From contig CM097882.1 of assembly GCA_044892505.1 (NCBI GenBank), positions 25,978,001-26,042,000 of the forward strand: a DNA stretch of 64,000 nucleotides. The letters are read 5' to 3'. Positions 1-51,630 of the stretch are shown one piece after another. The notes under the pieces are model-generated. The model searched no databases. It had not been told where the DNA came from and saw nothing but the letters and a program-made list of their open reading frames with translations. This DNA comes from Schmidtea nova (taxonomy: Eukaryota). Position 1 is the first letter of the stretch, and the number at the start of each line of letters is the position of its first letter. Both the position numbers and the translations under genes were made by a program.

Positions 1-71
1 CACACTGCGTTTACTACTTCCTTTCAACTCTCATCTCTACTCACCTTTGATTCAACTGACATCTCTCGATG

Positions 72-452
72 GCCTGCTGGGCTTTCCAGTCAGTACCTTT
101 AATCTCCCCTGTTATCTCAACTTTATTTCTCTCAACATTACTCATTATCTCATTAGCCTGCTGGGTTTTCCAGTCAGCGCTTTTAATCTCTCCCTTTTAC
201 TGTTATCTCGTTATTCTCGACCTTGACTGTCGTTTCGTTAGCCTGCTGGGTTTTCCAGTCAGCGCTCTTATTATCCTCCATTTATCTCTTTACTGTCGAC
301 TTTTAACTGCTCTTTACTCCGATGATCATCACTTTTGACCTGCTGGGTCTTCCAGTCAGCGTCCTCAATTTTACCACTTTATCTGTCTTAACAAACCGGT
401 TTCATTTTACTCTCGTCGAATCTCATGGTCTGCTGGGTTTTCCAGTCAGCAC
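72..452. repeat. Array of 5 ~25-bp hairpin-forming repeats (GCCTGCTGGGTTTTCCAGTCAGCGC) separated by dissimilar C/T-rich 60-72 bp spacers
   Basis: Copies start at 72, 156, 241, 338 and 428 (periods 84, 85, 97, 90). CTGCTGG can pair with CCAGTCAG around a GTTTT loop. Confidence 0.9.
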
Positions 453-814
453 CCTTATTTACTCACTTTACTTTACTACTCCTCTTTGTATGCATACTTT
501 GACGTCGTTAGGCCACATAATCAGCTTTACTCGCATTTATCAATACCCAGGTGCGCACCTTCAACTCTCTCGTTATTAATTCGGTTTCTTTCAGCTATTA
601 TTCCTCATTATTCGCTATTCATTTTCACTATTCGTCATTTATCTTCATTATCAATTATTCATCTCCATTATCGCTTGTTGATCTTTACTATCTTCTATTC
701 GTCTCTCTTTTTGCTTATTGATCTTTACTATCCGGATAGTTTTGTACTTAATTTAGTCCTCATCTGCCTCACTTCGTCGTCTTTCTCGTGGGCTTTCACT
801 CAATATTTTATTCT

Positions 815-1360
815 GGACGAGAACTACGCTCACAGTTGAGAACTATGCTCACTAACGAGAACTATGCTCAATGACGCGGACTGCGTTTACTACGAGAACT
901 AGGCTCACTGACGAGAACTAGGCTCAATGGCGATAACTATGCTCAATGAGGAGAACTATGCTCACTGGCAAAACATGGTTGTTATGAGGGTTTTGCTTAC
1001 TGATGGAAACTCTGTTTGCTCCGGGGACTAGGTTCCCCGATGAGAACTATGCTCACTGGTAGTATTTACTACAGGAATTTCGCTTCCTGATGAGAACTAA
1101 GCTCACTGTGTTGACTATGTTTATTGATGAGAACTACGCTCACTGATGAGGACTATGTTCGCTGGTCTTATGTTTATTTATGAGAACTCTGCTCACTACG
1201 AGATTTATGTTTACGGACGAGAACTATGCTCACTATGATGTTGTGTTTATCAACGAGACCCATGCTCACTATGATGTTGTGTTCTATGACGAGACCTACG
1301 CTCACTATGATGTTATGTTTTATGCTCACTATGAGACCCCTGCTCACGAACGAGAACTCG
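815..1360. repeat. Degenerate tandem array of GAGAACTATGCTCA units (~17 copies)
   Basis: The motif (T/C)GAG-AACTATG-CTCA recurs about every 19-21 bp at first, then at wider spacing. It produces the repetitive ORFs at 1180 and 1226. Confidence 0.85.
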
Positions 1361-2042
1361 AAATATCATCTCTCAGTGGTTGCATGTGTTGCTTCGAGAT
1401 GTTCCTCTCAGTGGTCACTTATGCTTCTTCGGAGAATCTATTATCGCGTTTCGTTAAGTTCTGTCTTTCCAGAACTATGGGCAAATCCTTTCTCTCTAGG
1501 ACCCCTTTCGTCATTTCCTTTCTTTCAAGGATTTCATTAACCTCGAGTTTTTCCTTTACTCGGTTCATCTATTACACGCCTTTATTCTATTGTTGATTCG
1601 TCAACCTCTCTACTTGATTTTACTTTATGCGAGCTGATTACGTGCCTTTCCTCATATACCACATTTTCCTTATTCGTCTTACTCATTTTATTGCTTTCGG
1701 TCTTTACTGATCAGTTTATCCTCCTATTTTTATAGTTTTTCTGCGCGCGCCTAAACTTCATTGGGTTGTCCCTACCTTTCACCCCAACCAAAATATATTA
1801 AAAGATCGCATTGGTCTACTGATGCACGATGTGGTGATCAGTCACATCACAAGAGCTTTCCAATATCCGCGATTGGATCCCTTTCTACACATCTCGGGTG
1901 AGTTGATCAGTTGGTTCCCCCCAATGGGTGCCTATCGGACTACTCGTGAGTAGCTCATTATTACTTAGGTCATTTTTACCAAATCATTGTTAAACCCTCA
2001 TAATTTCAATAACAACTGCACTTGTTCAAAACTTTATTTCTA

Positions 2043-2501
2043 TTACAAGTACACTGTTATTCTTTCGGATACGGGAAGGTTGCACATAGGACATCGTTCA
2101 TTTATTTTACATTCATTACAGAATCGAAAATGTCCACATGGCAACAACATTATCTGTATTTTGTTCATTTCACAGATATAACACGTCAGATATTGTCTTG
2201 TATGTTCTGTTGTTATTCTCGTCCACTCATCGTGTTTTGTTGCAATCTGTTGTTCTAGCCTGTGGCATTCGATATTCATTTTGGGGTTGTTTAATCGCTC
2301 TCTATACCATTTGTATCTCGTTGCTGTATCCACTGTTATCTTATTCTCGCTTATGCTCATCATCATTTCGGCTCTTTCTGTGTTGTTTGTCGGTTCGTGA
2401 TATTCTACTGCCTCGAGTCGTCTTAGCTTTCTCGTTATTGTCTCCACTGTCTCGTTATTTGTTTCGAAAAACGTTTGCATTTCTTTTATTTTGTTCTCCA
2501 T
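2043..2501 (-). CDS. 152-aa protein with a helical N-terminus and a C-terminal IAP/MDM2-type C3HC4 RING finger (putative E3 ligase), no BIR domain
   Basis: CYIC...LLPCGH..FCNEC....CPMC..PV near the C-terminus. AATAAA directly after the stop (minus strand 2038-2033). AG acceptor 3 nt before the ATG (ttcattcag|gggATG). Confidence 0.8.
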   Translation of the reverse strand: MENKIKEMQTFFETNNETVETITRKLRRLEAVEYHEPTNNTERAEMMMSISENKITVDTATRYKWYRERLNNPKMNIECHRLEQQIATKHDEWTRITTEHTRQYLTCYICEMNKIQIMLLPCGHFRFCNECKINERCPMCNLPVSERITVYL

Positions 2502-2648
2502 CCCCTGAATGAATTCTCATTAATTTTTGTCGATCTTTATTTACTATTCATTATTCCTATTTTATGGTAGTCCTACCGTTCGCTTTCTGTTGTTCTGTTT
2601 TGCGTCGTTACTTGCGTATCCCCCCGTGTTCTTGAATGTCGCCCCGAC

Positions 2649-4100
2649 ATGATCATTGTTAGTTGCTCACACTCATACCATTTTCATGCACACTTTTCAG
2701 CATACTTTTACCTTACGTCATGCATACTTTTCATCACTTTTCATACTGTTACTCCACATACTATTCATCATGCTTTATTCATTAAAAAAAAAATTAAAAA
2801 TCAAGATCAAGTTATCACTAATCTCAACAATCTTCTCTCAACCTACAATTGCAAGAACCAAACAAGCTGTCAAACACCACCACACAGCTCTACCCAAACA
2901 CCTCCTAATAACTCTACCCCTAAAATAGAAATCAACAATACTATATCTCATAACCTGATTCCTCCAAAAACCATTGATCTTGATGCATCAGATGAAACAA
3001 ACAATACTAATTATAGTCCATGCTCTGAAATGAATACTACTGACTTCAATGAAAGCAATGAAACTGAAAACACTAAAGAAACTCCTAATACACCACTCTC
3101 CTCCAAAGATGAAATCCACCAAGTATCTTCTACTCCAAAAAAAACTGCTAAAAGGAGACGAATCTCAGATATAGATCTCTTTAATACCCAAGATAGTCTG
3201 AACAATACTACTCAAGCTCAATGTTCAAAAAGTTACACCTGCACCCCTTCCTATAAAGAAACCTTAAACAAACCTTTTAATTTTCAAACATCAATTGGAG
3301 TTGCACAAGATTTTGAACTAGCTCAAAACCTTATAGTTGAAAAATGTCATATCACAAAAGACATTTCAAACATTCTAAATGACGAAAAGATGAAGAGTGA
3401 ATCTATAGACTCAGCTATAGAAAACAATACTTACTCAAATGCAGGTATCCTACTCACAAATGAAACTATATTTGAAAGTTACCCCCGTAATAAACCAATC
3501 TTTAGACTCTTGAAAAGAGGATACTTTCTATGCAGCAATAAAGAATGCACAATTAAAAAATTTATTGGATGCAATAGACCTGAGGAAATAGATGATCATC
3601 TAAGAACACATAGCAAAAGACTCAAATTGGAAGATACATTCACATGTGTCATGTGTAATAGTGCCGATAGTAAAACTAACTCCAGAAAAGGATCGATTCT
3701 AATCACAGGTGCCGAAAAGCACATCAAGGAGTTCCACAGTGTGATTCGAATTCCATACTCCAAATCCGAGATAAAAGAAAATAGTAAAAGAATAACTTTA
3801 AAAATCAACAAACATGGTGCACTCGTTTGTCACCATTTTGACAACATTAAACGAAATGAATGTGATATCAATCTCACATATAAAAGCTCTCTTAAAGACG
3901 TCCTTAAACATATGAATCACAAACATAAAACTAAAATTTTTGACATTAGTGCAATCATATGCCACTGTGATACCATCCTAAAATTTTCTGAGATAACAAC
4001 TCATGTTGATGCTCACAACAATACTGCTATACCTAGTGAACCTATAGGAGAAATTCCTGACAATTTACTTGTAAGTGATGTAGATCTGAAATCTCAATGA
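2649..4100 (+). CDS. Retrotransposon N-terminal region: low-complexity N/T/S segment plus four C2H2-like zinc fingers, ending at a single TGA
   Basis: CSNKEC..HLRTH; CVMC..HIKEFH; CHH..EC..HMNHKH; CHC..HVDAH. Confidence 0.8.
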   Translation: MIIVSCSHSYHFHAHFSAYFYLTSCILFITFHTVTPHTIHHALFIKKKIKNQDQVITNLNNLLSTYNCKNQTSCQTPPHSSTQTPPNNSTPKIEINNTISHNLIPPKTIDLDASDETNNTNYSPCSEMNTTDFNESNETENTKETPNTPLSSKDEIHQVSSTPKKTAKRRRISDIDLFNTQDSLNNTTQAQCSKSYTCTPSYKETLNKPFNFQTSIGVAQDFELAQNLIVEKCHITKDISNILNDEKMKSESIDSAIENNTYSNAGILLTNETIFESYPRNKPIFRLLKRGYFLCSNKECTIKKFIGCNRPEEIDDHLRTHSKRLKLEDTFTCVMCNSADSKTNSRKGSILITGAEKHIKEFHSVIRIPYSKSEIKENSKRITLKINKHGALVCHHFDNIKRNECDINLTYKSSLKDVLKHMNHKHKTKIFDISAIICHCDTILKFSEITTHVDAHNNTAIPSEPIGEIPDNLLVSDVDLKSQ

Positions 4101-7100
4101 CTAGGCCTTCATCATATATCTATTTACTTTTACACTAGAATTATTACAAAATCTTCCATCTTTATTGATAACTTAAGTAGCCAATCTTTCCTCATAAACG
4201 ACTTCGTTACTTTCTTTGAAAACTTTCCCTTCTCTAAATATCCAAATTGGAATGAAATATTCTGGCCGATAAACTATGAAAATAACCTGTGGACTCTTTT
4301 TTATCTTAATAAATCCAAACATCTTGCAACCTTCATTGACCCAACCTGCGATAATAGTCTTGAACGTTACTCCACTACTGCGTCGAACATTCTAAATGCT
4401 ATTCTTAATATTCAAAAAATTATCTCTCCAATAGACATAAAACTTACTGAAACTAATACTCCTCGTTGTAATACTATATCTGATTCTGCTTACTTTGTCT
4501 GCCACTTCGCCTTCTGCCTTACTCGTAACTATCCTCTCACTTTTCCTCCTATATTAAAAATTAGAAAAAGCATTAATGAAAGTATTGAAAAAATTATAAA
4601 TGACCGTAAACCTGATCATGATATATCGAAACACACCAAAACTTTTAATAACATCATTAAAATGATCAATATAAATGCCTATACTCCTGACCAAGCACTA
4701 GATGATATGAAACCTATATTTTTTAATATTTTTCCTCTTAAAAATAAATTTAAAAAACTTTTTAAAATAAATAAAATAAATAGAGAAAGCTTCCAACTTA
4801 TCTTTACCTTGCGACTTCATTTTGACAAATTTCCAAAAAAAACTATTGAAAAAATACTAATTAAAAAAGACCTCATTACTAGAATCCCTGAATCTACTGA
4901 CATTAAAAACTTTTTTTCTAAACAAAAAAAATATACCATTAATTTAAATAACGGGTTAATTAGTAATATTTTTCATGACCTTTTTACTCAAGAACCATTT
5001 ACCAACAAAACAATTAAAGACATACTTAAAATACTTGATAAACGTTCCGCTCCTGGAAAAGACCATATATCTTACTCTGACTGGCAGAAAACTCTTGACC
5101 CAAACTTTAACTTTCTGGTAGCACTCTTTAATAGCATTCTTAGTAACAACACTTGTCCTCTTTCATGGAAGACCTTCAAAACCAAACTGGTTCTAAAACC
5201 AGGAAAAGAACTCTTATCTCACGACTTATCTTCTTGGCGTCCTCTTGCAATCCTTGACACCTCTTATCGCATTTTTACTGCTGTTCTTAACGACCGTCTC
5301 CTTTCTTGGATCTCTGCTGGGGATCTCATCTCTAAAAACCAAAAAGCCATTGGAATACCCGATGGATGTACTGAGCACAATACCATCCTAATCCTTACCA
5401 AAGAATGGGCCATACGTAACAAAAAAGACTTGAATATTATCTGGCTTGACCTTGCTGATGCCTTTGGCAGCCTACCTCACGACCTTCTTTGGAAAACCCT
5501 TACTCTTCTTGGATTACATGTTGAGACCATAAACCTTTTTAAAAACATGTATGAAAATATCTCTACCTTCTATGACTGCGAAAAAAGACTGACCGAAAAT
5601 ATTCCTATCTTTAACGGGGTAAAACAAGGATGCCCCCTCTCTATGACACTCTTCTGCTTATCAATTGACTTCATCATCCGTTACATACTCTCAAATCACC
5701 CCCTTGTCATCAACAATCTTAACGTCAGCATACTTGCGTATGCGGATGATCTTGTTCTTATTGCTGATAACTATAATGAAATATGTAAAATACTGACTGA
5801 CACAATCAACCTTACCAATATGGCTAACTTACAATTTAGACCAAATAAGTGTGGACATTTTCAACTCCACAGAAATAACTTAAACGAGCCTCTTTTTATT
5901 TATGATAACCCAATACCTTGCATAGATGAAAACAACCTTTATAAATATCTTGGCGTAAATTTTGGAAACCGCAACAAACATAATATAGATGACGTCTTAG
6001 AAAAAGCTTTATCTGACAGCAAAACTCTTTTTGAATCTGATCTTCACCCTGCACAAAAAATCTATGCTTATAAAACTTTTATACACTCTCGTCTTATCTT
6101 TCTCTTTCGAAACTGTACTCTTAATACAATGACTCTTGACTCTAGTAGAAGTAAAAGTGTTCAGGGAAACCCAAAACAAACTGGATATGACCAGAAAATA
6201 AGAAAACTTATAAAAAAATCTATAAATGATATCCACTTAAATTTAAATAATAACTTTATCTACTCACATATATCGCTTGGTGGCCTGGGTTTTGTCCCTA
6301 GTATTGATGAGTACCTAATCCAAAGTATCACACACCTTTTTAGACTACTTAACTCAAACCACTTAACAATGAGAAATTTTATTACCCAAGAAATGATCCA
6401 AGCTTGCAATGATAGATTTAAAAATAAAAACTGTGACCTAGAAAAAACCTTAAAATGGATAAACGCAGAAATCAAAGGTCAAATTAGTGGCCAAAAATGT
6501 CTTTTTAACAAATTTCGAGCATCTGTCAAACGCTTTAAACAAAAATTTAATATTTGTATAAAATTATGTACAATAGATAACAACTTCAATTTAGAAATAG
6601 CAAAAGACAATAACATAGAATACCTAAATCCCCTTGAAATAAGTGACACCTCTTCTTCTCTTCACACTATGACTGCTAAATGGTATTTTGAACAATGGAT
6701 CTTAATGAGCTGCCAAGGGCACATCGCAAAAACTATAGGACATAATACTCTTTCCTCTTTCTTAATTAAAAAACATGAACTTACTGAATACCAATACTTT
6801 TTCTTGATCAAAGCTCGAAATAATATGTTATCCCTAAACTACGGACCTTACAATCTTATAACTGACAAAAATATTCTTTGTAGACTTTGTAAAATGGAAC
6901 CTGAATCTCAAACCCATATTTTTAATCATTGCAAGCAAACAATAAACGCGAGACGTAATAAACATGATAGAGTCCTTATAGTAGTCCGCGATTTTTTGAT
7001 TTCTAAAAAATTCCATGTAGATATGGAAAAAAGTCCCCCAGGAGTTATAACCACCTTGAGACCTGACCTAATAGTGAAGTCTGATAAAAATGACCATATA

Positions 7101-7409
7101 CACATCTTAGACATTAAAGTTCCATACGACACTTTAGAAAACTTTGAAAATGCCCGTAGTAAAAATTTTGCTAAATATAGAGAACTAGGCTTAGAAACTA
7201 AAAAAGTTAATAAATGCAAAACAAAAATTGCCGCTATAGTAGTAGGTACTCTTGGCACCTGGGACCATGAAAACGACAGGCCATTAAGCGATGTTGGCCT
7301 AGATGATAAAGAAATAAAAACTTTATGTAAAAAAGTTATGGTTACTGCTGTCAAAGCAAGTTTCGATATATACATGGATCACATAACCAATAGATACAAT
7401 AACAATTAA
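4101..7409 (+). CDS. Ulp1-like (C48) pseudo-protease + reverse transcriptase + CCHC + REL endonuclease, in the same frame as 2649-4100
   Basis: Hand translation of 4101-4661 shows no stop and no ATG. It contains IFWPINYENNLWTLF, FIDP and PRCNTISDSAYFVCHFA. From 4662: KGVKQG-like NGVKQGCPLS, AYADD, CRLC..HIFNHC, RPDL, DIK, KY. Confidence 0.85.
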   Translation, partial: LGLHHISIYFYTRIITKSSIFIDNLSSQSFLINDFVTFFENFPFSKYPNWNEIFWPINYENNLWTLFYLNKSKHLATFIDPTCDNSLERYSTTASNILNAILNIQKIISPIDIKLTETNTPRCNTISDSAYFVCHFAFCLTRNYPLTFPPILKIRKSINESIEKIINDRKPDHDISKHTKTFNNIIKMININAYTPDQALDDMKPIFFNIFPLKNKFKKLFKINKINRESFQLIFTLRLHFDKFPKKTIEKILIKKDLITRIPESTDIKNFFSKQKKYTINLNNGLISNIFHDLFTQEPFTNKTIKDILKILDKRSAPGKDHISYSDWQKTLDPNFNFLVALFNSILSNNTCPLSWKTFKTKLVLKPGKELLSHDLSSWRPLAILDTSYRIFTAVLNDRLLSWISAGDLISKNQKAIGIPDGCTEHNTILILTKEWAIRNKKDLNIIWLDLADAFGSLPHDLLWKTLTLLGLHVETINLFKNMYENISTFYDCEKRLTENIPIFNGVKQGCPLSMTLFCLSIDFIIRYILSNHPLVINNLNVSILAYADDLVLIADNYNEICKILTDTINLTNMANLQFRPNKCGHFQLHRNNLNEPLFIYDNPIPCIDENNLYKYLGVNFGNRNKHNIDDVLEKALSDSKTLFESDLHPAQKIYAYKTFIHSRLIFLFRNCTLNTMTLDSSRSKSVQGNPKQTGYDQKIRKLIKKSINDIHLNLNNNFIYSHISLGGLGFVPSIDEYLIQSITHLFRLLNSNHLTMRNFITQEMIQACNDRFKNKNCDLEKTLKWINAEIKGQISGQKCLFNKFRASVKRFKQKFNICIKLCTIDNNFNLEIAKDNNIEYLNPLEISDTSSSLHTMTAKWYFEQWILMSCQGHIAKTIGHNTLSSFLIKKHELTEYQYFFLIKARNNMLSLNYGPYNLITDKNILCRLCKMEPESQTHIFNHCKQTINARRNKHDRVLIVVRDFLISKKFHVDMEKSPPGVITTLRPDLIVKSDKNDHIHILDIKVPYDTLENFENARSKNFAKYRELGLETKKVNKCKTKIAAIVVGTLGTWDHENDRPLSDVGLDDKEIKTLCKKVMVTAVKASFDIYMDHITNRYNNN

Positions 7410-7539
7410 AAGTATATTCTTAAATACTATTTATTATTAATTATATTATATATATATATAACTTTATACAAAGACTTTAAAACATCTACCGGGAGAGTAT
7501 CTTGAATACCTCCAAATAATAATATTTTCAGCCCAATTA

Positions 7540-8055
7540 TCCTTATCAAATCTACTCAATCTCTTACTCTCCTACTCAATCTGCCACACAATATCTCTTA
7601 AAAACCCATGCCCAATTGTTGTCCAAACTCCAACACACTACTCTCCTCAAAAATCCTACTCAATCTCTGGAACAATTGTCCTGCTCAGAAACTCTGGCTC
7701 AACCTGATGTCCTGCTCAAATACCGGCTCAAATCTATATTCTGCAAAATTATCCAGCTCAATTTCTAATATCCTGCCCAAATCCTATTGCACAAACTACT
7801 TCCAATCACAAGCCCAAATCCTTATTCTACTCAAAAATTACTGCTCAAATTCAATATTCGGCTCAAATATCCTGATGTCCTGATCAAATAAAGGCTCAAA
7901 TATATATTCTGCCGAACTATCCAGATCAATTCCTACTCAATCTCCTACTATCTTGCTCAAATCCTATGGCACAAACCACTTCCAATCACAAGCTCAAATC
8001 CTTATTCTACTCAAAATTACTGCTCAAATTCAATATTCTGCTCAAATATCCTGAA
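7540..8055 (+). repeat. CTCAA-rich 3' UTR repeats, including a ~180-bp tandem duplication
   Basis: Roughly 7710-7885 recurs at 7885-8055 (shared CACAAAC..CTTCCAATCACAAGC.CAAATCCTTATTCTACTC). Confidence 0.75.
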
Positions 8056-8689
8056 CCTGGTACAATAGCTGTTGGTCCCTGGACCATGGCTCGCGGAATG
8101 GAAAAATGAAACACAGATGTAAAAAAAACCCAAGCCATGTGCGGCTGGGTTGGTCCGAAAGGACAGGTCCTGTCTCTTCGGAGCAGAGAATTTTTTATAA
8201 ATAAATTTTGTAGGCCAACTTACCAGGGTTGGTCGCCTTAAAAAAAAAAAAAAAAAAAAAAAGTAATCCCTTAGTCAAACTACTTTGTCAAGTAACGTAC
8301 TAATTTTTGTTTTCCTACTATCGGGATTGACCTTTCATACCCTCCGAGGGTTATATTCATATGTTATAACATATTCGATTTACTACTACTTCTTGGTGCT
8401 AGTATCCTTTGTCCGCGACGTTACGCTTTACATATCTCTACTCCCGTCGACTTTCGATGTATCAGTACTCCTCGAAGGTACACACCTTTGTCAAGATACC
8501 ACCATGCCTACATACTCCATGCGAAATTAACGTTACTTTGATTTGATTTGGGACCCTTCTCTGTTACTCGATACCCTATGTGCACTTATTCCCCTTCCAC
8601 TTACCAAGTATTTAGTAAACCTATGGTCCCGCCGCATCAGCACCTCACATGAAAATGTGTTGCGCTGAGAGGCCAAGAATCCGTCAGGC

Positions 8690-9283
8690 TGTTAGGCCTC
8701 CGGAAAACCCTATTGATTTTAGTATGATTACAAATAATTATGAGGGTTTAAAATAAAACACAACTTGTAATTACCTTTTATTTCTCTTCCAAATCGATTT
8801 CACAATGTTCGCTACAAGATTCACAATCACTTACACTTGGTAAAGATAACCTTGACAAATACTGATTTGACTCCAGTATTTATACTAAACCGGTGTTGTT
8901 GGTCAGCCAATCAGCATCGAGTATGTGTGTATGTTTGATCATTATTTTGTGTTGTCGGCTTTTTGCTGCCTAATTCAACTCAATGATTTGTTTGTTTAAT
9001 CATGCGGTAAGTTTATTTTTGTGTGATTTAATTTTAATTTTATTTTTGTTTTAGGTCTTCGGTGACATCCGCCCACGCGCTGACATATTCAGATTTTATC
9101 TGCTTCGCATGAGTGAGTTCTTGAGTTTTATTTTGTTCTGATTCATGCTTTATTTCTTTTAGATGTTGCCGCTCATTTGCTATTTTTTATGCTGGTAATT
9201 TATTTTGTTGTTATTTTTTGTAGCTTTATTTTATTGATTTACGTATTATCTTTCAGATGCTGCTCGATTTGGCTGGCCCAACA
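8690..9283. mobile_element. LTR-like unit (594 bp), orientation unresolved
   Basis: Starts TGTTAGGCC and ends GGCCCAACA (8/9 inverted match, TG..CA). TATAAATA on the minus strand near 8880-8887, CCAAT near 8907, AATAAA on both strands. No TSD, canonical PBS or PPT found. Confidence 0.5.
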
Positions 9284-9506: not shown

Positions 9507-9634
9507 ATGTCCAATTCAGATAGTTTAATTAATTTTTCTTGTGATGATATTGATCCAGCAAGTCTCTCGAATACTATTTTGCAGCAGCAAGATTTGGGAA
9601 AGTATTTAAGAGAAATTACAAATGAAATCAACAA
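9507..9634 (+). CDS. COG5: COG5 exon 1
   Basis: ATG 9507 MSNSDSLINF...EITNEIN; GTAATA donor at 9635; 52-bp intron; phase 2. Confidence 0.8.
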
Positions 9635-12600
9635 GTAATAATGTTAATGTTCAAATAAATTATTTTCCCATCAACAAAAAAACTAGCTTGAATGAACAAT
9701 TACAAACTCATGTCATATCAAAACACGATGATTTAATGAGCCACGCGGTTGGTATAGAGAAACTCGAAGGAGTTCTGGAAATGATGTGCTGTAGAACTTC
9801 TAATTTGAAAAATCATATTGACAAAATCCGAGTGAAATTAGAAGAACCGTTTAATAATCTAACCATGAGAATTCAACAGTTAGATAATATGCAAATTACT
9901 TGTGAACTGCTTCGGAAAATTATCAGAATTAATTGTTTAGTTAGAAGATTGAAAGGCAAATTTGATATTTACTATATATGTGCATGCTCGCTTGCTGTGA
10001 TTAATGGGGACCGAGCGATCATCACAATCGGCGAATTTCACACTTAGGGAACAATCGGGATTTATTTGTTTATTGCTTACATACTCTAGTGTGCAAATTA
10101 TTAAAAATTGAAAAAATATATATAAGTTATAAATTATGTAAATTGACAAATTATTTCATCCTAATGTAGATGTGGTTAAATTGTTCAATGATGAAAAGTT
10201 AGGAAAAGAAATGAATTGTAGTTTGCTTAAGTTTGATTAACACGAACACATAACTTTACTCCATGTGCTTATTGATTCCTTAGCTAGCTTAATGACTGTC
10301 GTATACATATAGAAATACTGAAATGATATAATTTTTAAAAATAAAGAAACTGCTTGAAGGGTTAAGTGATATGCTTAAATGTATAAACATATTATAATAT
10401 ATTCGTTAATTTTAGATGCTTAATATATTATATTCATTTAATACTTATAAGGTATATGTAATAAATACTCTAATAGCTCGAAACTACTAATGGGGTTTTG
10501 CGCTGGATATCAGAAAGCCTTTAATAGTATTTTTTTAAAAAAAGACAAATTCATTCGACAAATATTTGAAATAATTAAAAGCTAAGGAAGTCGAATGCGC
10601 TTGCAAACTGTTTCTATGTTAAACTAATTATTAGTGCACAGAGGCGAATATAAAGTTCATACGCCATGTTCACAGATTATCGATTAGCCCTTGCATATCA
10701 AAGTGATGTGACATCCAATGTACCAGGAAAAGTATTCAATAAAGTTGTTCCAACTTTGTTTTAGACTTACTTGGCGTGAATAGCAATTTTTACGTCTCCG
10801 ACATAGCAGCGAAGAGAACCAAGAGCTTAAAACTATTCTGCTTTTGGGATTTTTCACTCGGTATCATAAAACTTTTATTAGTGTTTAAAAAAACAAACAT
10901 TCACCTGACAATTATTTGAAAGTATCTTTCATTTGTTATATAAATTTAGAGTAAATATTTTTCATTTAATGCATATACCGACAATTTTATCTTATTTTTT
11001 AAAATATCACTGACAAGTGAATTTTATTGTGATTTCTTTTAACCATAAAAAGCATAACAGAGCCTGTCAGTCTCTATTTGAATTCAAATTACTGATAACT
11101 TTATTGATATTTATTAAATTTTTCTAAAATGTCTTGTAATTTTTGTTCTATAATAAATTATTTGAGTCTAATTATTATCAAAATACAAAGAAATATGTAA
11201 TAGAGACTCAGAGGCACTGTTGTTCGCTAATGCTTGTAAAATAGTTGTGCTTTTTAGGGTTAACGTGAACGAATTACTGAATCACGGTAAGCGAGTACTT
11301 ACGATATTGACAAATGAGATATAATAAAAAGGAAATAATTAATAATTATTCAAAACAGATCATCAACGAGATCCTTGTAAAGTTTCGGCAGCAATCAATG
11401 AGTTGCGATATCATTTCAGCACGACCGATTGGAAAGGAATACAAATTCTCGAGAAACATTACGAATTAACAAATCTCACAGTTAACAATCTTATCGACGA
11501 AGCTTGGTCACTATTGAAACTTGTAAAAGAAACAAACAATCAAGCAATGCTGGGAATCGCTTTACAAGTGGATTCATTTAGCCAGCTAATAGAATATAAC
11601 TTCTTTGTTTCCCATAGATTTTCAGCAATCTGAACATGTTGACAGCCAGTGTCAACAGAATCGTGTCGAATTGGCAGAATGAATTCTGTGAAAATCTGAA
11701 AAAAACCGTCAATATAAATCTCATAATTCAAAATTCATTCAAGAAACAAGCAACAACAAACCAAATCGGTGGCGGTAAAGGTAAAGATTTCAATGATAAT
11801 TGATTTTCATTAATCAATTTCTCATTTCACACTTAATCCAATCAATTATCAATCGTTATCATTGGCTAGGAAACACATTTTAAAATTCCATCAAAAATTA
11901 TCTCTCAGTTACTTTCGTGAATGCGTGATATCTCCTGACGTTAACACCGTTATACCGACCACTACTCCTTTGTTTTTTAAAATCATAAACCTTAAAAGTC
12001 AATTATAATTATTAAATATTAATGCCGATACTATTCAAACCCACATGTCTGATTTATATCGATTATAATAATTTTTTTCCACTGGATTTTTGTTTACCAT
12101 AGAAAAAGGGGATTCCGTTTAGCGTACGTCCACCGTCACTTAAGTTATCTCGCATACTCCAAGTCGCGCTGAATTATTACCCGAGGTACACTTGTTTTCA
12201 TACAGCAAAAGTTTCAATAATACACACAGGGGTGAAACCTACTTGTGACTCATAAATGCTGTTTTCATTTATGACAATTTAGCCATTTTTAAAATGACTT
12301 TCAGGTAAGTTAATTTAAAAAGATATCTTTTAAGGTTTATATTTTGATCTCATAATGATATGAAATATTTACACAACGCTTTGAAAGATTATGCCTGTGT
12401 TCTACAATTTAATTTTAAATTTATTATTAATTACTTTGTAAGAAATCATGATTTTTTACAATATTTTTGGAATTATTTACGCTCAAAGTAAGTTAAAAAA
12501 GGAACCCATAAAAACAAGTTTTTAATGTAACTCTTTCTTTTTCTCATGTTCTCGGTTAATTTTATTGTTGTTTCATTGTTTGGTAGTTTCTTGGCAACAG

Positions 12601-15600: not shown

Positions 15601-18600
15601 GCAAGGGTGATAAATTGTATTTGTATGAATAAAATAAATCGATTAATAATAACTTCAATATTAACTAGTAATACAAATAAATAGATTAAAATATATTATA
15701 TTATAGATCATGATTATCTTTTGGTTTCATCTTTGATCTTTTTTTATTTATTCAATAATTTTTATATTAATTTATATTAATTTTTTATAAGACTATAGAT
15801 TAAATATTAATATGAAAATTATTGAATATATCATAAATGTTATAATGTTAAACCTTTGTTTTTCTTTTCAATTGGTTAAGGTAGTGATTCTCCACCTGTG
15901 TATTACGACACATTATTGTAGCTTGAGACTTTCGCTGGTGTGCGGCGAAAAGTTTAGAAAATATTTAAAATTGCCATGGTTTTTATAAAAATTTAAAAAA
16001 TTTTAACGAATTTTTAAACAAAATATTTTATGTCATATCATTTTTGAAAGTTTTCTAGGAGAAAGAAAGAAAACTTCTTTAAAAATGCGTATTTTGTCGA
16101 CATTTAAACCTTATTATAATTTGATTTTCTCTCGAAAACAAGTACAACTTTCAATTTTTCTTTTAAAGCAATTTAAATAAAAATTCAACTTTTATGTCTC
16201 AAAAATTTTTGAGTCTTTCCAAGTGTACCGTGAAAATTTTAAGATTGATTTAATGTGCCGTAAACCAAAAAACGTTGAGAATCAATGGGTTAAGGCAATT
16301 TTCCGGCATGAAATTAGGTTGGCTGATAATCTGAGTGAACATTATTATACTCCGTTATTCCCACAAATAGTATTGTAGAACTCCCTGTGCTAGTCATGTA
16401 ATTCACGTATAATTATAACTAACAAAATATCGCACTTTAGATATAAATATTTTGTATATTTACGAAGACTGTAAGAATTAAACATCAGTTGTTAATTTGA
16501 AATTATCCCGTGCAATTGCATAACTACATGATATCAAGATAGTTTCTAGAGGCCATCTTTGATTTTATTATTAAAAGCTTTTATAAGAATAAAGGTGTAA
16601 AGCTCTACGTTGTCAGTAAAAATTAAGCCACACATCAATTCTCTTTTATTCCCGATAAATAATAATAAATATTATTTGCCACAAATATTTCTTCGAATAA
16701 TATATTGTAATAATAAAATTTATTAAATATCAAAAGCTTAATTAACAATATTTTATTACATAATAATAAAAATAATTCCTTAATCCGATAATTTCGATAA
16801 AAATTTGTTTCTCAATATTTTTCATTTCATTTAAATTAAATTTAGTGATAACTTTGAATTTTTAATTAAAGCCTCTCTAGAATATAACCCGGATTGCTAG
16901 TTGATTTGAGGATGTGTATGAGAGTTGTTCGCTTCGGTTGAACATTTTTATGGGGAATCTCAATTTTTCATTTTCTATTAAGATTAGCAACAGCTGAATG
17001 GAATTTGATAAAACTTGTATGATAAAATAATATATTTATATAAATCGTAATTTATTTTTTTATCTCAATAATAAACGAACATTAATTTACTATCGAAATT
17101 ATTCGCAATTAGGTATTTTAGAAGTACACTTTATAAGATTATTTCAATAATTTTAGAAGATTTTTGAAAAATGTATGTAAAAAATGAAATTGATTATCAA
17201 AAAATAAATATTAGTGTCTAAAATATTTTTAAAATAAATCCCCTAAAATTCCAGCTTATTAGCTAATTTCGCAGAAACCCGACAAATGCCTGGTCTGTTT
17301 TCTGGTATTGCAATAGGGATTTGATTGACAAAGTAAATAATTTGATGTCCCTAAAAATTTTGGTAGATTGGAAAATGATGAAAGTGATGTTTTTATGATT
17401 TATATTATTTGTCTTCAAATTATTATAAAATCTGATAATGATGATGATCATTGTATCGTTTTTTTCTATTAATAAATTCTGTTTTTCCAAATATCGTTAT
17501 TTTCCCATAAATGCATGCCCCACTTATTTTAATTAGTATATTTAATCAGTCGTGCAACTAAAGAGAGTAAAGAGTGCGGTCATCCGAACGGAAGGAATAA
17601 CCTTTTAAAAATTATTTTACAATTTTCATGTGTTTTCTCGCCGCTTTTTGTTGAAAAAGCTTTAAACCCGATACGAGTAACACTTTCGAAAAGTAAAAAA
17701 AGCAAATTAAAAATAATGCAGTTTACTCCTTGGTCTAAGATGGAGTTGACTGTGTATTTAAAAATAACAAGTAATAAGGGATAATTTGAAATATGAAAGG
17801 GCAATAAGCAGTTACTCTCATGAGTGGCAAATTACCTTATTATACCACCGTATTTCATTCATTTGATTGGCTGAAATTACGGAGGTAAATGATTTCCGCC
17901 CTGATTGTGACTAAGTTTAATCAACATATCATATTTAGTAACACCCGGACGAGCTGCTGTTCCAACTGGCGAACAGTTGGCATCATTTAGAGCTTCATTT
18001 TGGACTGTTGTTGATAAATTGGTAAATAGTGTCGAATCCAATATGTTAAATGTTCTTCTTTTATCTAAAACTCTTTATATGAAACGTGACATGATATCTC
18101 AGAAATGTCTGATTGAAAATTTGTTGAATTCCGACGAAAAAGAAGAACTTGATGAATACTGTAAAAAGCTTTTCAGTGAAAGCATATCAAGTGTGTGTTT
18201 AAGTTTTAAAATTTTGGTTGATTTCAAAAAATTGCACAGACACGGGCTATCAGTATCAGCTCTGGATCTCTGATAAATTGAGTCAATCATTTAGGGATGC
18301 AATTGCATCAGATGAATCTGGATTTTTAAAGAAAACTCTGGAGAATGAATATCCAAAATTGCTTAAATTATTTATGGATCTCAACACAAAGCTACTGAAT
18401 CATGCCGTTGTTCAGAAAGATGACATCAATCGAAATTTCGTCGAGTTAGATAACATGAAGTTCAATCAAAAATATTTCAAAACCTTTCTTGTTGAGTTCG
18501 AACAAGCATTTCTTTCGATATCATTGTCTAAATTATTTGACATTGTCCAATTCGCATTCAATAAGTCCGAAAAATTACCATCCGACGACGATATCAATAA

Positions 18601-21600
18601 TTTCGTAAAAAATATTTCAACAGAACTTACATTGGCCTCCGTTGATCCTCATCTAATGACANNNNNNNNNNNNNNNNNNNNNNNNNNNNNNNNNNNNNNN
18701 NNNNNNNNNNNNNNNNNNNNNNNNNNNNNNNNNNNNNNNNNNNNNNNNNNNNNNNNNNNNNNNNNNNNNNNNNNNNNNNNNNNNNNNNNNNNNNNNNNNN
18801 NNNNNNNNNNNNNNNNNNNNNNNNNNNNNNNNNNNNNNNNNNNNNNNNNNNNNNNNNNNNNNNNNNNNNNNNNNNNNNNNNNNNNNNNNNNNNNNNNNNN
18901 NNNNNNNNNNNNNNNNNNNNNNNNNNNNNNNNNNNNNNNNNNNNNNNNNNNNNNNNNNNNNNNNNNNNNNNNNNNNNNNNNNNNNNNNNNNNNNNNNNNN
19001 NNNNNNNNNNNNNNNNNNNNNNNNNNNNNNNNNNNNNNNNNNNNNNNNNNNNNNNNNNNNNNNNNNNNNNNNNNNNNNNNNNNNNNNNNNNNNNNNNNNN
19101 NNNNNNNNNNNNNNNNNNNNNNNNNNNNNNNNNNNNNNNNNNNNNNNNNNNNTCTTATCGAATTCGTTATATAAGTCATTGAAAGATTATCCCAGATTTC
19201 TCTAACCTATGACTTTACCACTGTGTAAACAGGGACCCTTGGAATTTCCCATTGCTCAATTTATTTATATATTAAATCTTTAAATTCTCGATAAATTACA
19301 GATGCCATTCCACCTGGTATCACTGCCATTTGAATTTGCCTTTTTCTGCAATGATCCTTTAATTTGTTTTATATGTGCCCGACATGGATCTCATATAATA
19401 CACTTCCCCTTTGAGACATTGAGCGCAGGAAGCATAAAATCAATAAAATTAATAATCACGTCTTCGTTCACTCATGCTTTTTCTTGATACGTAAAAAGAA
19501 TATTAGAACCTTTTTAATATAACTTTTAACTTTCCCTTTGTGGATAATTAACTGAATTGCTTTGCTGCCAAATGCCCAAACAGATATAATATCAATTATT
19601 AACATCGAAGTAAACCAAAATTATTCCATCACAATATGCTTCCTTCCTTGCAAATCAACCGTTTGTATACGAGCATCTTCAAAATAAACAGCAGCCTCAT
19701 TTATTAATTAAGTTTGATAGAGATCTGTCCGGAATTTTAGATATTAAATATTTCATTTAATTATTCCTCTTGTTATTAATTCATTTATTGTTAGCAGCAG
19801 TAAAGTTAGTTTTGCGCCTGAAAGCTAAATTATTTCTCGCACTAAAACCATCTACCCGACGATTACTTGCCTCCAGTTCAATATTATCTTGTTACCTTTA
19901 TATTGTTTATTCTTAAATCTATAATTTAGTCTAAAATGATGTCTTCAAGATTACCAAGACATGTTTTATCCCTGGGTCTTTTATTCTCTTCGTCGTGGAT
20001 GATTGGATTTTTATTTGTTGTCGAATCATTTGCCATCTTGAAACGACTTCTGGTCATAATTCTGATTGTCACGTTTCTCAATATGTTTATTGCTTTTGTT
20101 GTATGAATTACCTTCTCCCATAAACGTTATAACTTCTTTTTTGAACGCCATTTTGAATGTTCTTTTCATTTTAATGAGTGTAATAATTGAAACTTCAATA
20201 AAATATTGGAAATTTGTTTTGGTTATTGAAAACAGTAAATATTTTTCGGTGATATCATTTGAATAGTGATACTGTTCGGAGAAATCCGTTAATAATAATT
20301 ATTTATGATTATAATATTAATCATAATATAGTAATAATTGATACAGAATAATATACAGTCAACATTCAGAGTTGTAAGAACCTCGGTAAAATGATCGATA
20401 TCGTCTGCACAAAATTCGAACAGTGCATCTCGACCGATAGTGATTCGAGCCAAATAATCGGCCCGGCTAATGCCAATCAAAAATGCAATTTCAACATTAT
20501 AAATCTTCTCCACAAATTCAAAAGCAGCGTGGGAAATTCTATAATTCGTCAATTGAGATTATCAGAGCCAAATCAATTAGTAATTCATTTGAGATATTAA
20601 TTGAGACATTAATTATAATTATCTTTATTTTCCGTTCTATCAATTTCTATAATTAATTCTGCACTCCTAAAACCTTTAATTTTAATCGACAAAATGACAA
20701 TTCTGTTCCGAATGATAACAGAAAATTAACTTCTTTATAGAATGATAATAAAATAAAATAAATTTGATTTTTTTAATATATCAACTTTATTACCCGACTT
20801 CGCCGTGATAGATTCAAACGCATTCTTTAATTATTATAATTAAATTTACTTACCCTGCTCACTTTCTATCAAATCGCGAACATTTATCTATTTCAGGGAT
20901 GGGCAAACTACGGCCCGCGGGCCGCATGCGGCCCGAATAATATTTCTATGCGGCCCGCTAAGACCAAGTTAGATTTCTTTTAAAAAATAAAGTTTCAACA
21001 GAGTTTCTTTATTTTTCAAGCAAATATGTTTAATGTACCTTTCAACCTTAAAATAATAAATGGGGGAACATTGTTTTTTCTTCAAAAACCTTCTATTTTA
21101 AAGCTATTATCAATATTAATTATTACACTTTTATACTATGCGGCCTTTCAAAATTTTGAAACTATGTATGCGGCCCTTGTACTAAAAAGTTTGCCCACTC
21201 CTGATCTATTTACTGGAATAAGGCAGCTTCTATAAATAGAATAAATAGGTGTGCTGCCCGGCTTCGCCCTGGTTGTATTGAACTTCTAAACGCAGATATT
21301 GAAAATACAAATATTTGCGTTTGTGTTATTATGACGATAACATTAGATTATTTAGACGTCGATTATTATTATGAAATTATTTTGGTGCTAGATAATGTTG
21401 ACAGTTGAAAGGAGAACCACGAAACTTACCTCATGGGATACCTACAAAATATAATCCATCAATTAAAGGGTTATAAATTAATATGGGGAAATATAAATTT
21501 ATATAAAAAATTATAAAAGAAATGAATTTCTCGCGAAAAGAATTAAAAAATGTATCAGAAAGAGTTCTGACAACAGATTTACTTAACGAGAGATATTTAT

Positions 21601-24600: not shown

Positions 24601-27600
24601 TCACAATTCGTACGTTCATAATGATTTTTAAAATTCCTAAACAATATTTTGAAATTGGAAATATCAATCCTTTTCTTGCATGTCTTATTGTGCTCTCTTC
24701 GCTCTTTCTGGCACATTATAAAACCTCAATTCATAACAAAACAACAGATACTGGTTCGTATACATCAATGGAAAGTTTTTGTGATTTTAAATATAAAAGA
24801 AATATGATAATGGATTAGTTTATCGTTCTTGGACACTGCCTTAAACTTATTATAAATCTATATCTAGTATTGATACATTTGTTAAGTTACTACAGATAAA
24901 CGGATATTCAAAATCTGTCTTGCCACGAATAATGTGTGAAACTGTTGATAAGTATGTCAATAAGTTGAATATGATTGATGACAAAATCTCACCTGGTGTT
25001 GACCCGTTTAATACCCCTGATTTAGTTCCTTTGATTGAAACAGGTGATGTTGTCATGGGAATGAATGATAGTGTTGATAGTATTAATAATAGTATCATAA
25101 TAATAATGAAATAATTAAAAGTAACGAATAATAGCATTGGTATTGTTAAATTTTTTATCATTTTCTGAAAGTTCTGTAAATTTAAAAAAATCTTTATATT
25201 GGAAAGACTACTCTTTATCTCTGTAACCGAGTTCAAGAACGTGCCAGAAAAAGCGGAAAGAGTAATATTATTGAGCACAATAAGACATGCAAGAAAAGCA
25301 TTGATATTTAAAATTTCAAAATATTGTCTAGGGATTTTAAAAATTAATATGAACGTATGAATTGTGAGGCTTTGATGATTTATCAATGACATTTACTGCA
25401 CAAACCGATAAATTTAAACGATTTACAATCACACCATTTCCAAAAATTCAATTTGATGAAATTTTATAATTAATTCCTAAATTTCTTAGTTAATTACTTT
25501 TTCGACCTTGTATAAAATGTAATATATTTTTGAATATTTTCAAATATAAAATTGAATAAAATGGAATAGTATTGAATAAAATGGAATTTAAAATTGAATA
25601 AAATGTAATAATATTGAAAAATATGGAATATATTGAAAATGAAATATAGTTTTGATTCAAAACTATATATTATTCCATATTATTCAAGAATTTATTCTAT
25701 TTTATTCTATTTTATTCAATATTATATTGTATATTATTCAATACTGTATTACAATTTATTCAATATTATATTCCATATTATTCAATAAATATTACATTTT
25801 ATTCAATATTATATTCTATACGATTCAATACTATTACATTTCATTCAATACCATATTACATTTTATTCAATATTATATTGTATATTATTCAATACTATTA
25901 CATTTTATTTCATATTGTATTGCATATAATTTAATACTATATTACATTTTATTCAATATCATATTACATATTATTCAATACTATATTACATTTTATTCAA
26001 TATTATATTCTATACGATTCAATACTATTACATTTCATTCAATACCATATTACATTTTATTCAATATTATATTGTATATTATTCAATACTATTACATTTT
26101 ATTCCATATTGTATTGCATATAATTCAATACTATATTAAATTTTATTCAATATCATATTACATATTATTCAATATTATATTGTATATTATTTAATACGGT
26201 ATTACAATTTATTCATTATTATATTCCATATTATTCAATACTATATTACATTTTATTCGATATTAGTAGGGACAAGTGAGCGGTCTAGGCCAAACCATTT
26301 ATCCATAAACTATGTAATATTACGTAATAATTAGACAGTTAACCCGCATATCCAAAAAATACATAATACTTTATGTACTACGCAATTATTACATAATCAC
26401 TATGTCAATATTACGTCATCATTACGCAATTAATTAACTATTGTATAATTTTATATAAAACTTTAAATTCTTATATAACACAATAATTCTTATGCAATTG
26501 ATGACGTAATACTGAAATTCATTAATTTTTATTTATTTTTCATAATTTTTACAAAAAATATAAAATAAATTATTTTTTTCAAATTATTTTTCCAAAACTT
26601 TCAAAAATGCTCAGATTTAAATAATTTTTATACCAATCTACTTGGAATTCAATGGCGAACAAAAAAGGGTCAAAAAGTAAAAACATGAAAAATGGTCTTC
26701 TCCGGTAAATTTAACATGAAAAACCTTACTTGGTTAAAAATGGTTAAAATTCAAGAACTTTTACATATAAATAATCAGAATTTAACGCTCAACAATAAAA
26801 AGTAATATTAACTAGAAAAACAACAAAAAACACAAAGTATTTTAAAAATAAATAAATAAAACTTTATTTAAATAAATCTTATCATCTTCAGGCAAATTGT
26901 TCATCAGCAACATCTTCACGCACCCTCATAACCACATCAATTCCCTTATAATGTCCGTAAAGCCAGAGTAACATTTTTTCCCACCCAAAGTCTTTTGTCG
27001 TCAAGATTAGTCAAGGCAATCTTAGAAGATTTATTAGTAAAGAGTTGATGATTCTTACTAACTATTCTAGACTGATCAACAGAAACTATTGAATTATTAT
27101 TATAACAATCCAGATACGACTGATAATTCAGTTTAGTATCCTTCAATGTTATACCCTTAGCCTTAATGCACTCTTCATCACCTAAAAGACTATAACACTT
27201 TGGCCTAAGGAATACCCACTCATCATACTTGAATCCTTTATTCTCGTCTTTGAATTTACCAATGACGGAATCTAGGTTCCTACTGTATAATGGGTGATTC
27301 GGATCATAATTAGAAGTGTCAAGTAAGTTATCTCTTATCATGGCCGGTAAAAGAATATCAAGCTTACAATTTCTAATCTCAAGAAAAAACGATGTTAATT
27401 TCGCAGTTGAATTCGTTACGATATAAAAAACAATAAAAAACACAATTTTTAAAATAAATCTTTATTTAAATAAATCTTCGGCAATTAATTTGTATTGTAA
27501 AGGCCATCATAGTATGCCTTTCTCATTTCAGCAACCAAGATATGCAAAGATTGTTGTCTTTTAAAATCGTGGCAACAAGCACATCCATTGGTGCATGAAA

Positions 27601-36824: not shown

Positions 36825-38039
36825 ATGAATAAAACATACTTTTGTCAGAAATCGAAGCCGGTTTTCATTGCCTGCATTTTTATTCCTCTTTCAATTTTGG
36901 GTATTTGTGGCAATTTTCTTCTTTTGACAGTAATGTTAAGACTGAAATTGAGAAAAAAAACTTTTTCCCGATTCCTGCAACTACTTGCCATATCAGATTC
37001 AATTTGTATCGCATTTCTTTTATTGGAATTCCTTGAAAACTTATATAGTAAGTTGATTACCATATCAAATGACAACGGTTCATTTGATAAGCTGCTGATC
37101 AATGATTATTATCTTTATCCCCGTACTGATATTCATTGTAAAATTGAACAATTCTTAAAGCATACTATTCTGTTGATTTCGGCTTCTACAAATGCGATTT
37201 TGACCATCGAGCGTTTCATGGTCATATTCTTTCCCTTAAATGGTAAAGTTTTGTGTACGACCCAATCAATTACTATCGTCATCATGACAACGGTCATCGC
37301 CAGTCTTTACATTCAGACTTTTAGAATTGTGTTCACAATATCAATCGGAAACAAATGTATGTTTCGTACTAAAGATCTAATTTTTGGCTATTATGCAGAT
37401 GAAATAATTGGAGGTTTGTTAATATTTTTAGTGCCATCTATAATCATTTTATTGTTTAACGCAATGATTCTTGTTAAAATCATAAGCTTCTCTCCCCATA
37501 TCAAATCAATGTCAGCATTACAACAGACCAACCGAAATTATAATTTACATAATTACTCTATCCAAGAAACGCAACCTTTCATTCAAGGTCACACCTGTTT
37601 GAGAAACCATTTCATCGTCAGGTCTTCGAATAATTCCGATTTTGGATTGTTTGTCTGCTCAAAGTGCGGAATCATGCTTCGAAGTCCGAATATTCGAATT
37701 CTCAAGAGTCGTCGGCGAGCTACGATGATTCTTTTATTCATTACATTTTCCTACGTCATCAGCCACATCGGTTATTCAACCTTGACCTTCTATTTTCTCT
37801 GTCGAATACACCAAGTGATTATGCTGCCATCAAACTCGACGGAATTGAATTCAGTTATTTTAGACATTTATCATTCGCTAGCTCCGGCGTCTTGCTATTG
37901 GTTTGACGCATGCATGACCTTGAAACTCATCGGTTATGGAGGGAATTTTTTTATTTATTTGCTCTTTGAAAAATCATTTCGAAATGAACTGTTGATCATT
38001 TTTAGTCGCTGGAGAAGACTGATAAGTCGTAGAATTTGA
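36825..38039 (+). CDS. Intronless rhodopsin-family 7TM receptor (peptide/chemoreceptor-like orphan), 404 aa
   Basis: GICGN (TM1), LAISD (TM2), TIERF..IFFPL (TM3), FLVP (TM5), RRATMIL (TM6), GNFFIY..FR (TM7/H8). Confidence 0.9.
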   Translation: MNKTYFCQKSKPVFIACIFIPLSILGICGNFLLLTVMLRLKLRKKTFSRFLQLLAISDSICIAFLLLEFLENLYSKLITISNDNGSFDKLLINDYYLYPRTDIHCKIEQFLKHTILLISASTNAILTIERFMVIFFPLNGKVLCTTQSITIVIMTTVIASLYIQTFRIVFTISIGNKCMFRTKDLIFGYYADEIIGGLLIFLVPSIIILLFNAMILVKIISFSPHIKSMSALQQTNRNYNLHNYSIQETQPFIQGHTCLRNHFIVRSSNNSDFGLFVCSKCGIMLRSPNIRILKSRRRATMILLFITFSYVISHIGYSTLTFYFLCRIHQVIMLPSNSTELNSVILDIYHSLAPASCYWFDACMTLKLIGYGGNFFIYLLFEKSFRNELLIIFSRWRRLISRRI

Positions 38040-51409: not shown

Positions 51410-51630
51410 TTCATGATTGCAGTTTATGTGAAACCCGATAAAATACACATGTTTAATCCAATGGGATTTCATTATCCGTCGCTATTGATGAAAAACATAT
51501 CGTCAAGGTTGATGTGAATTGAATATAACAGAATCTGATACTAGAATGCAATGACAAAAAACACTTGGTAGCACTGTTTAGCGTGGTTAATAAAAATGTT
51601 TAATAAAAAAAATATTTGTATTGAAATTTT
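51410..51630 (+). pseudogene. Polinton cysteine protease (adenain-like) remnant
   Basis: IAVYV...HMFNPMG...IEYN.I.Y.N...HCLAWL, with stops. Confidence 0.55.

Follow-up and report, generated by a model that had tools for sequence, protein, structure and literature searches.

A BIR-less RING gene between the 5′ LTR and gag of Burro-like giant gypsy elements in Schmidtea nova

A short gene for an IAP-type RING protein lies close to a NeSL-like retrotransposon in the genome of Schmidtea nova, which raises the questions of which mobile element it belongs to, how it might be expressed, and what its product might do. We analyzed the 64,000 nucleotides surrounding this gene (GCA_044892505.1, contig CM097882.1, positions 25,978,001–26,042,000, hereafter the window) and compared the locus with its copies elsewhere in the genome.

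The window copy and its nested NeSL insertion

The RING gene occupies window positions 2043–2501 on the minus strand and encodes 152 residues, comprising a predicted helical N-terminal domain (aa 1–105), an IAP-type C3HC4 RING (aa 107–140, nt 2183–2082) and a short tail. The first-pass annotation of this DNA had described an intact frame with a C-terminal C3HC4 RING and without BIR domains. Both points held, since the frame reads intact, and Pfam places zf-C3HC4_3 at aa 105–146 (E 2.5e-9, above cut-off) and detects no BIR in the ORF.

Two origins had been proposed for the gene, an LTR element split by the NeSL insertion, or an antisense ORF of the NeSL itself. All 29 other RING copies first fetched match the window without a break up to 2780–2782, while other NeSL copies match only from 2788 and differ upstream; the NeSL is thus 5′-truncated at about 2788. 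It spans 2788–8262 on the plus strand, antisense within the Burro-like copy, and contains an ORF1 remnant reaching a TGA at 4098–4100, an RT frame at 4101–7409 and a poly(A) at 8240–8262. One further NeSL copy, 98.9% identical over 2788–8262, extends much further 5′. The insert resembles NeSL/R2-type non-LTR retrotransposons in its RT, zinc-knuckle/endonuclease-like tail and poly(A), but it does not carry the RING gene. The ATG at 2649, from which the NeSL ORF had seemed to start 147 bp from the RING ORF, lies in LTR-element DNA, and the head-to-head arrangement is therefore an artefact. The apparent 5′ end of that ORF (2649–2787, plus strand) is Burro leader DNA in antisense, from which the reading runs on into the truncated NeSL as a chimeric frame.

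No NeSL DNA was present at any of 74 RING loci, which by their coordinates represent 64 distinct copies, and the RING gene was absent from all of 41 NeSL loci, so copies of the gene go with the LTR element and the antisense NeSL origin is refuted. Furthermore, a 23-nt RING motif has 274 exact occurrences in the genome, including families C and D described below, versus none in the reversed control. The gene's position in one window only might have suggested an antisense NeSL gene or an ordinary single-copy host gene, but with at least 274 copies, mutually exclusive loci and a different 5′ end in NeSL copies, we give this explanation practically no credence. The NeSL is a later, unrelated nested insertion, and its proximity to the RING gene is accidental.

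Positions 1–2782 (minus strand) form the internal 5′ region of the Burro-like element, from LTR to gag, with tandem repeats at 816–1358, and 8263–9283 (minus strand) is the surviving outer 1.0 kb of its 5′ LTR, with the TG start at 9283. The core of the LTR-element proposal, that these two segments are one element split by the NeSL, stood when copies were compared. The strand bias cited in its favor is also present, the plus strand being T/C-rich on both sides (T 0.39 in 1–2782 and 0.335 in 8263–8689) versus an A-rich NeSL (A 0.37), but the boundary falls at 2782/2788 rather than about 2640. The direct joint of about 2600 to 8263 that had been anticipated does not occur in NeSL-free copies, which have about 2.4 kb more there. 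The window copy lacks this DNA at the NeSL site, namely about 280 bp of leader with the PBS and about 2.1 kb of inner 5′ LTR.

To the left of the window, this copy has gag, starting about 890 bp away, and an env-protease frame. No match for the RT-RH-IN region or the TRAF region was found on its left side, and its outer flanks showed no matching target duplication. The NeSL junction at 2783–2815 is taken from the assembly alone. This copy is damaged and non-autonomous. Its promoter and splice acceptor are separated by 5.5 kb of antisense NeSL with five minus-strand AATAAA motifs, and the copy may be silent.

The TGA between the NeSL ORF1 and RT frames (window 4095–4104) has the context CAA-TGA-CTA in the window and in 5/5 other aligned loci, which represent four distinct copies down to 77% identity; we take this context to resemble that of stop-codon read-through. 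The longer NeSL copy (L156–L157, G000:C1:475250001-475270000, 98.9% identical) sits in sense inside a related Burro LTR and is fused in frame to an LTR ORF, forming a chimeric frame of 1,183 codons. Targeting of Burro LTRs by NeSL was considered and rejected, as the seven of 29 3′ flanks (window included) that lie in DNA like that of the window's element family are at different sites and in both orientations. The 29 sampled flanks have no common target, bar one three-to-four-copy repeat and one pair.

Giant elements with a RING gene in a conserved position

Four copies of the element family carrying the window's RING gene (family A, E1–E4) were read from end to end. Three are 29.4–29.5 kb long and the fourth, with nested inserts, 47.7 kb. 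The LTRs (3.18–3.32 kb, TG..CA) are 99.1–99.7% identical within a copy and are flanked by 4-bp target duplications. A PBS-like sequence, resembling a PBS for tRNA-Pro, follows the 5′ LTR, and a purine-rich tract precedes the 3′ LTR. One of the four copies has a single open frame of 4,550 codons, interrupted in the other three, in which Pfam domains follow the order gag (CCHC knuckles), env, PR, RT, RH, IN and ankyrin. The env is a Monjiviricetes-type fusion glycoprotein (PF24664, E 1e-70) upstream of the RVP protease. The giant frame is followed by a 514-codon frame, then by a TRAF gene, a separate frame of 476 codons with TRAF RING, zf-TRAF and MATH, and then by two more ORFs. Two further ORFs of about 190 and 210 aa lie inside the 3.2-kb LTR (L043:5956-6564 and L043:6708-7364, minus strand); neither has a Pfam match above cut-off, and their pN/pS of 0.15–0.39 indicates purifying selection. 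The RING gene is the first ORF past the 5′ LTR, about 560 nt from the LTR end. It lies on the same strand as gag, about 2.9 kb upstream of it. The RING ORF is a gene of a Burro-like giant gypsy element and occupies the stretch that separates gag from the 5′ LTR.

No BIR was found by tblastn in E1–E4 or the window's own element, nor any BIR motif in E1–E4. Pfam at E 0.1 detected neither BCL2 nor dUTPase in the family A polyprotein and no SUMO-like motif in family A; a weak Rad60-SLD match (E 0.028) occurs in family B. No named Burro protein appeared among the 120 protein matches listed of 244. About a dozen unnamed environmental polyproteins (within P0166–P0183) combine the fusion glycoprotein with PR-RT-RH-IN at 39–46% identity in the searched region, and represent Burro-like elements.

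Relatives of the RING protein revealed further families. A single-sequence word search with the protein found no relative. The best match among 1.84 billion representatives was an unnamed protein of 160 aa, full-length at 28% identity, with two close relatives; full-length relatives outside this genome were P0002, P0152 and P0158 (27–29% identity). Searching the genome with the 160-aa protein identified a second high-copy family, B, whose RING protein is 27% identical to that of the window. Family B elements begin with the same TGTTGGGCCA as family A and measure 20–21 kb from LTR start to LTR start. They retain the protease and ankyrins, without detectable gag, env, RT or integrase, and family B is a non-autonomous Burro derivative. 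The RING-only gene comes first, followed by TRAF and a separate 399-codon BIR-RING IAP frame, with four or five ORFs without assignment (L144–L151). Since family B carries a full BIR-RING IAP as well, the RING-only gene is not simply that IAP; the two proteins share 41% identity in the RING only. Eight further loci constitute families C and D, at 43–48% identity to the window protein, with the ORF intact in 6/8 and gag 2–3 kb downstream of the RING gene in all eight. The RING gene therefore holds the same slot in four families (B–D at 27–48% identity) and is old. In a RING tree built by a quick method (104 rows, 60 columns, a motif filter having dropped 53 of 157 candidate rows), seven RING-only rows and five other proteins formed one weak group (81) apart from the family B IAP RING, and the forks separating that group were weak (78).

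We compared selection on the gene in 29 copies chosen via non-coding DNA downstream of the ORF, which avoids choice by protein score. The ORF was intact in 24 of these and had internal stops in three. There were no indels in the ORF across the 29 copies, versus nine distinct indels in the 250 nt upstream and 14 in the 459 nt downstream. With the window included, mean pN/pS was 0.24 (shared variants 0.27, singletons 0.42), being 0.16 in the RING part and 0.26 in the N-terminal part, and the Zn ligands were retained in 28–30 of 30 copies. The absence of ORF indels and the pN/pS value rule out a chance ORF. Two pairwise comparisons between whole elements gave 0.34–0.37 for the RING gene, 0.12 for TRAF and 0.04–0.11 for gag, env and RT (about 0.08–0.10, 0.05–0.06 and 0.04, respectively). 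The RING gene is hence under purifying selection, though looser than that on the core genes gag, env and RT. In family B, pN/pS was 0.22 both for the RING-only gene (30 copies) and for the BIR-RING IAP (10 of 20 loci passing the length filter). A protein search of the genome, in which 150 of 9,310 candidates were scored, returned matches to the RING ORF in all 150 at 67–100% identity.

Burro and GYPSM1 are giant planarian gypsy elements (Grohme et al. 2018 and Jurka 2007, as reviewed in PMC6431247). As far as that review describes them, the Burro1 polyprotein has BCL2-like, SUMO-like and dUTPase-like motifs, found with HHpred, and the RING motif of GYPSM1 (AIR1) is listed as one motif of the element rather than as an ORF of its own. 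Against these descriptions, family A is similar in its length of about 30 kb, its giant ORF with gag CCHC knuckles, mononegavirus-like env, PR-RT-RH-IN and ankyrins, and its MATH/TRAF cargo and accessory ORFs. It differs in having TRAF as a full-length gene of its own, downstream of pol, and in the stand-alone RING gene that precedes gag. The first-pass annotation had mentioned IAP-like cargo in giant planarian gypsy elements, and such cargo is published: Burro1 B-IAP, which has a BIR and a RING, is reported to protect stem cells from loss of life (Lee et al. 2026, Dev Cell, as described in PMC13465017). On that description, B-IAP and the window protein are alike in being IAP-type RING proteins carried by a giant planarian gypsy element, but the window protein lacks the BIR, and its N-terminal domain is a different one. 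BIR-containing IAP cargo, as in Burro1, was not found in five family A elements; the related family B carries it.

IAP and TRAF cargo in giant gypsy elements is already known, and what appears new here is a BIR-less RING gene in a fixed pre-gag slot. We found no description in the literature of such a gene upstream of gag in Burro, of its coexistence with a full IAP, or of a multi-acceptor layout, although Lee et al. 2026 and Grohme et al. 2018, or the supplementary material of either, may cover them. Our comparison adds a second, separate IAP-type RING gene, whose position is fixed across four element families and which is selected even in non-autonomous copies.

The predicted protein and the signals around its gene

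Profiles built from the family placed the RING closest, among solved structures, to those of cIAP2, XIAP, cIAP1 and BIRC7 (E 1e-12 to 2e-9). The better structure model of the 152-aa protein had a pLDDT of 81.6, with a confident N-terminal part of five helices. Its RING gave IDOL, BIRC7, RNF8, cIAP1 and XIAP as top Foldseek rows (E 0.01–0.04). The protein shares with cIAP1/2, XIAP, BIRC7 and IDOL/MYLIP a C-terminal C3HC4 RING that contains PCGH, follows a helix and leads into a short aromatic tail. It differs in lacking BIR, CARD and FERM domains, in an N-terminal helical domain of about 100 residues without a specific match, and in having no Arg after the last Cys. This residue is Asn in the window protein, Lys or Asp in relatives, Arg in cIAP1/2 and Tyr in XIAP. 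Membership of the IAP family takes at least one BIR, and the window protein falls outside it; its RING is, by sequence, of the IAP type.

The N-terminal domain matched no IAP domain, produced only generic helical-bundle structure matches (Z 5.2 or less) and gave no usable Atlas match. Profile comparison with the family B IAP aligned only the RING and about 35 preceding residues, and the N-terminal domain may contain a degenerate UBA. In the RING, all Zn ligands are conserved, as is the E2-facing Ile that follows the first Cys pair, and the aromatic tail residue (Y/F; Y151 in the window) is kept in 12/12 aligned sequences. A homodimer prediction scored 0.02 against a mark of 0.42, which is no evidence in either direction. 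The 152-aa protein is a predicted RING E3 ubiquitin ligase.

The gene is bracketed by candidate processing signals, two of which had been annotated before and proved conserved. An AATAAA after the stop codon (2033–2038, minus strand), a likely internal poly(A) signal, is present in 30/30 copies. The candidate splice acceptor CAG/GGG-ATG just before the start codon (2502–2508, minus strand; AG at 2506–2505, first exon base 2504) retains its CAG in 28/30 copies and has no long pyrimidine tract. In families B, C and D a YAG lies 0–3 nt before the ATG of the RING gene and an AATAAA at or within 17 nt of the stop; the family B acceptor alternates between TAG and CAG, with YAG kept in 29/30. More widely, 13 of 17 accessory ORFs in two elements have a YAG no more than 12 nt before their first ATG (background 0.28–0.34, p about 2e-4), or 11 of 15 (p 1.2e-3) without two ORFs whose TAG is an in-frame stop. 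These 17 ORFs were picked by eye, excluding overlapping frames, a broken continuation and 3′ LTR duplicates.

Upstream, the LTR promoter (8879–8911, minus strand) comprises a CCAAT box at 8907–8911 and a TATAAA at 8884–8879, shared by 13/13 other LTRs with alignment cover. The leader proposed earlier, from a TATA near 8885 to a donor near 8605, survives in part. The TATAAA at 8884 and the G/GTAAGT at 8604 (8597–8606, minus strand) are both present, but that donor is poorly conserved, with GT(A/G)AG in 6/12 other family LTRs. A better candidate, AAG/GTAATT with its intron start at 8774, follows an AATAAA at 8782–8777 (8769–8782, minus strand), and GTA directly after AATAAA/AATACA is kept in 15/15 LTRs examined (14 by pattern, the fifteenth by eye). 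This arrangement resembles that by which some retroviruses silence the poly(A) site of their 5′ LTR, with a donor placed beside it. In three family D LTRs no such pairing of AATAAA and donor appeared up to 140 nt from the TATA, and no matching promoter was found in family B. Four read runs of unspecified kind, with transposase adapter ends, contained no splice-like joint among the 15 joints listed of 49 and are uninformative on expression.

Proposed role and competing explanations

We propose that the RING gene is a conserved accessory gene, likely expressed from a spliced, internally polyadenylated mRNA, whose predicted E3 ligase product would act on host cell-death or immune signalling, and we regard this reading as probable. 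The LTR promoter would produce one short leader exon, from the TATA at 8884 to the donor at 8774, to be joined to alternative acceptors just before each ORF, the RING gene among them. The AATAAA past the RING stop would end the spliced mRNA, and read-through would yield genomic RNA. We consider this layout probable. We hold it equally credible that the RING would recruit an E2 enzyme, with the helical N-terminal domain, in place of a BIR, choosing the substrate. The ligase might then act on host cell-death or immune signalling in a way that favors the cell carrying the element. Its substrates could be components of TRAF/IAP survival signalling, a suggestion to which we assign slightly less than an even chance. 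It comes from the cargo of these elements, which includes a TRAF gene and, in family B, a complete IAP as well. As the protein has no BIR, it cannot inhibit caspases in the manner of IAPs, and an anti-apoptotic role is an analogy with Burro1 B-IAP.

The ligase could instead serve replication of the element and have no role in cell survival. In the way of accessory RING proteins of viruses, it might, for example, ubiquitinate Gag or bring about the degradation of a host factor for restriction or silencing. The env-like fusion glycoprotein in frame between gag and protease fits such a virus-like function, as do the N-terminal domain unlike any in IAPs and the weak structural matches (all E > 0.01), some of which are small RING proteins encoded by large DNA viruses. 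However, in family B, which has no detectable gag, env, RT or integrase, the gene stays under selection next to TRAF and a complete IAP, and we consider a purely replicative role rather unlikely. It is more doubtful still that the RING has little or no activity of its own and serves as a decoy, pairing with IAP-type RINGs of the host or element and altering their activity or stability. The tail position occupied by the conserved aromatic residue is used by IAP-type RINGs to dimerise, families A, C and D have no Arg after the last Cys, and family B encodes both a RING-only protein and a full IAP, all of which would suit a decoy. Yet the E2-facing Ile and the Zn ligands are conserved, and XIAP, an active ligase, likewise has no Arg at that site.

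With regard to expression, the ORF might be translated from unspliced element RNA as an upstream ORF, leaving the YAG and AATAAA unused. AATAAA is common in these elements (2.1–2.9 per kb) and YAG precedes about a third of all ATGs. Against this, about 3.4 kb and two LTR ORFs separate the TATA from the RING ATG, and both signals are kept in four families at 27–48% protein identity, with C/T interchange at the Y position. We judge translation from unspliced RNA improbable, and prefer the spliced accessory gene.

Taken further, Burro-like elements may run a virus-like programme, in which up to nine accessory genes share one LTR promoter and leader and are served by alternative acceptors and poly(A) sites. 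The first gene in this series would be an old, lineage-wide, BIR-less ligase with its own substrate-binding domain, distinct from B-IAP, while cargo-only derivatives without gag, env, RT and integrase would keep ligase, TRAF and IAP selected for survival of the carrier cells. We advance this wider scheme tentatively and with some doubt. The short, testable protein and the exact predicted junctions make it possible to ask whether such elements manipulate host signalling via spliced accessory genes, in the way of complex viruses.

Other features lie elsewhere in the window. A host COG5 gene (Pfam COG5_N, 9507–10047, plus strand) appears to begin some 220 bp beyond the LTR edge (9283) and points away from the LTR promoter, with more exon-like sequence near 18203–18660. 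Frames resembling fragments of Polinton-type integrase, DNA polymerase and ATPase were recognized by eye at 24850–28964 and 56123–56833, and a similar Polinton-like element is nested in family A copy E4 (L045–L046). A 404-aa intronless GPCR-like frame lies at 36825–38039 (minus strand), with N letters nearby. Finally, 47461–54797 contains a large inverted repeat, with a 1,785-nt arm pair that is 99% complementary, and is probably a foldback DNA transposon.
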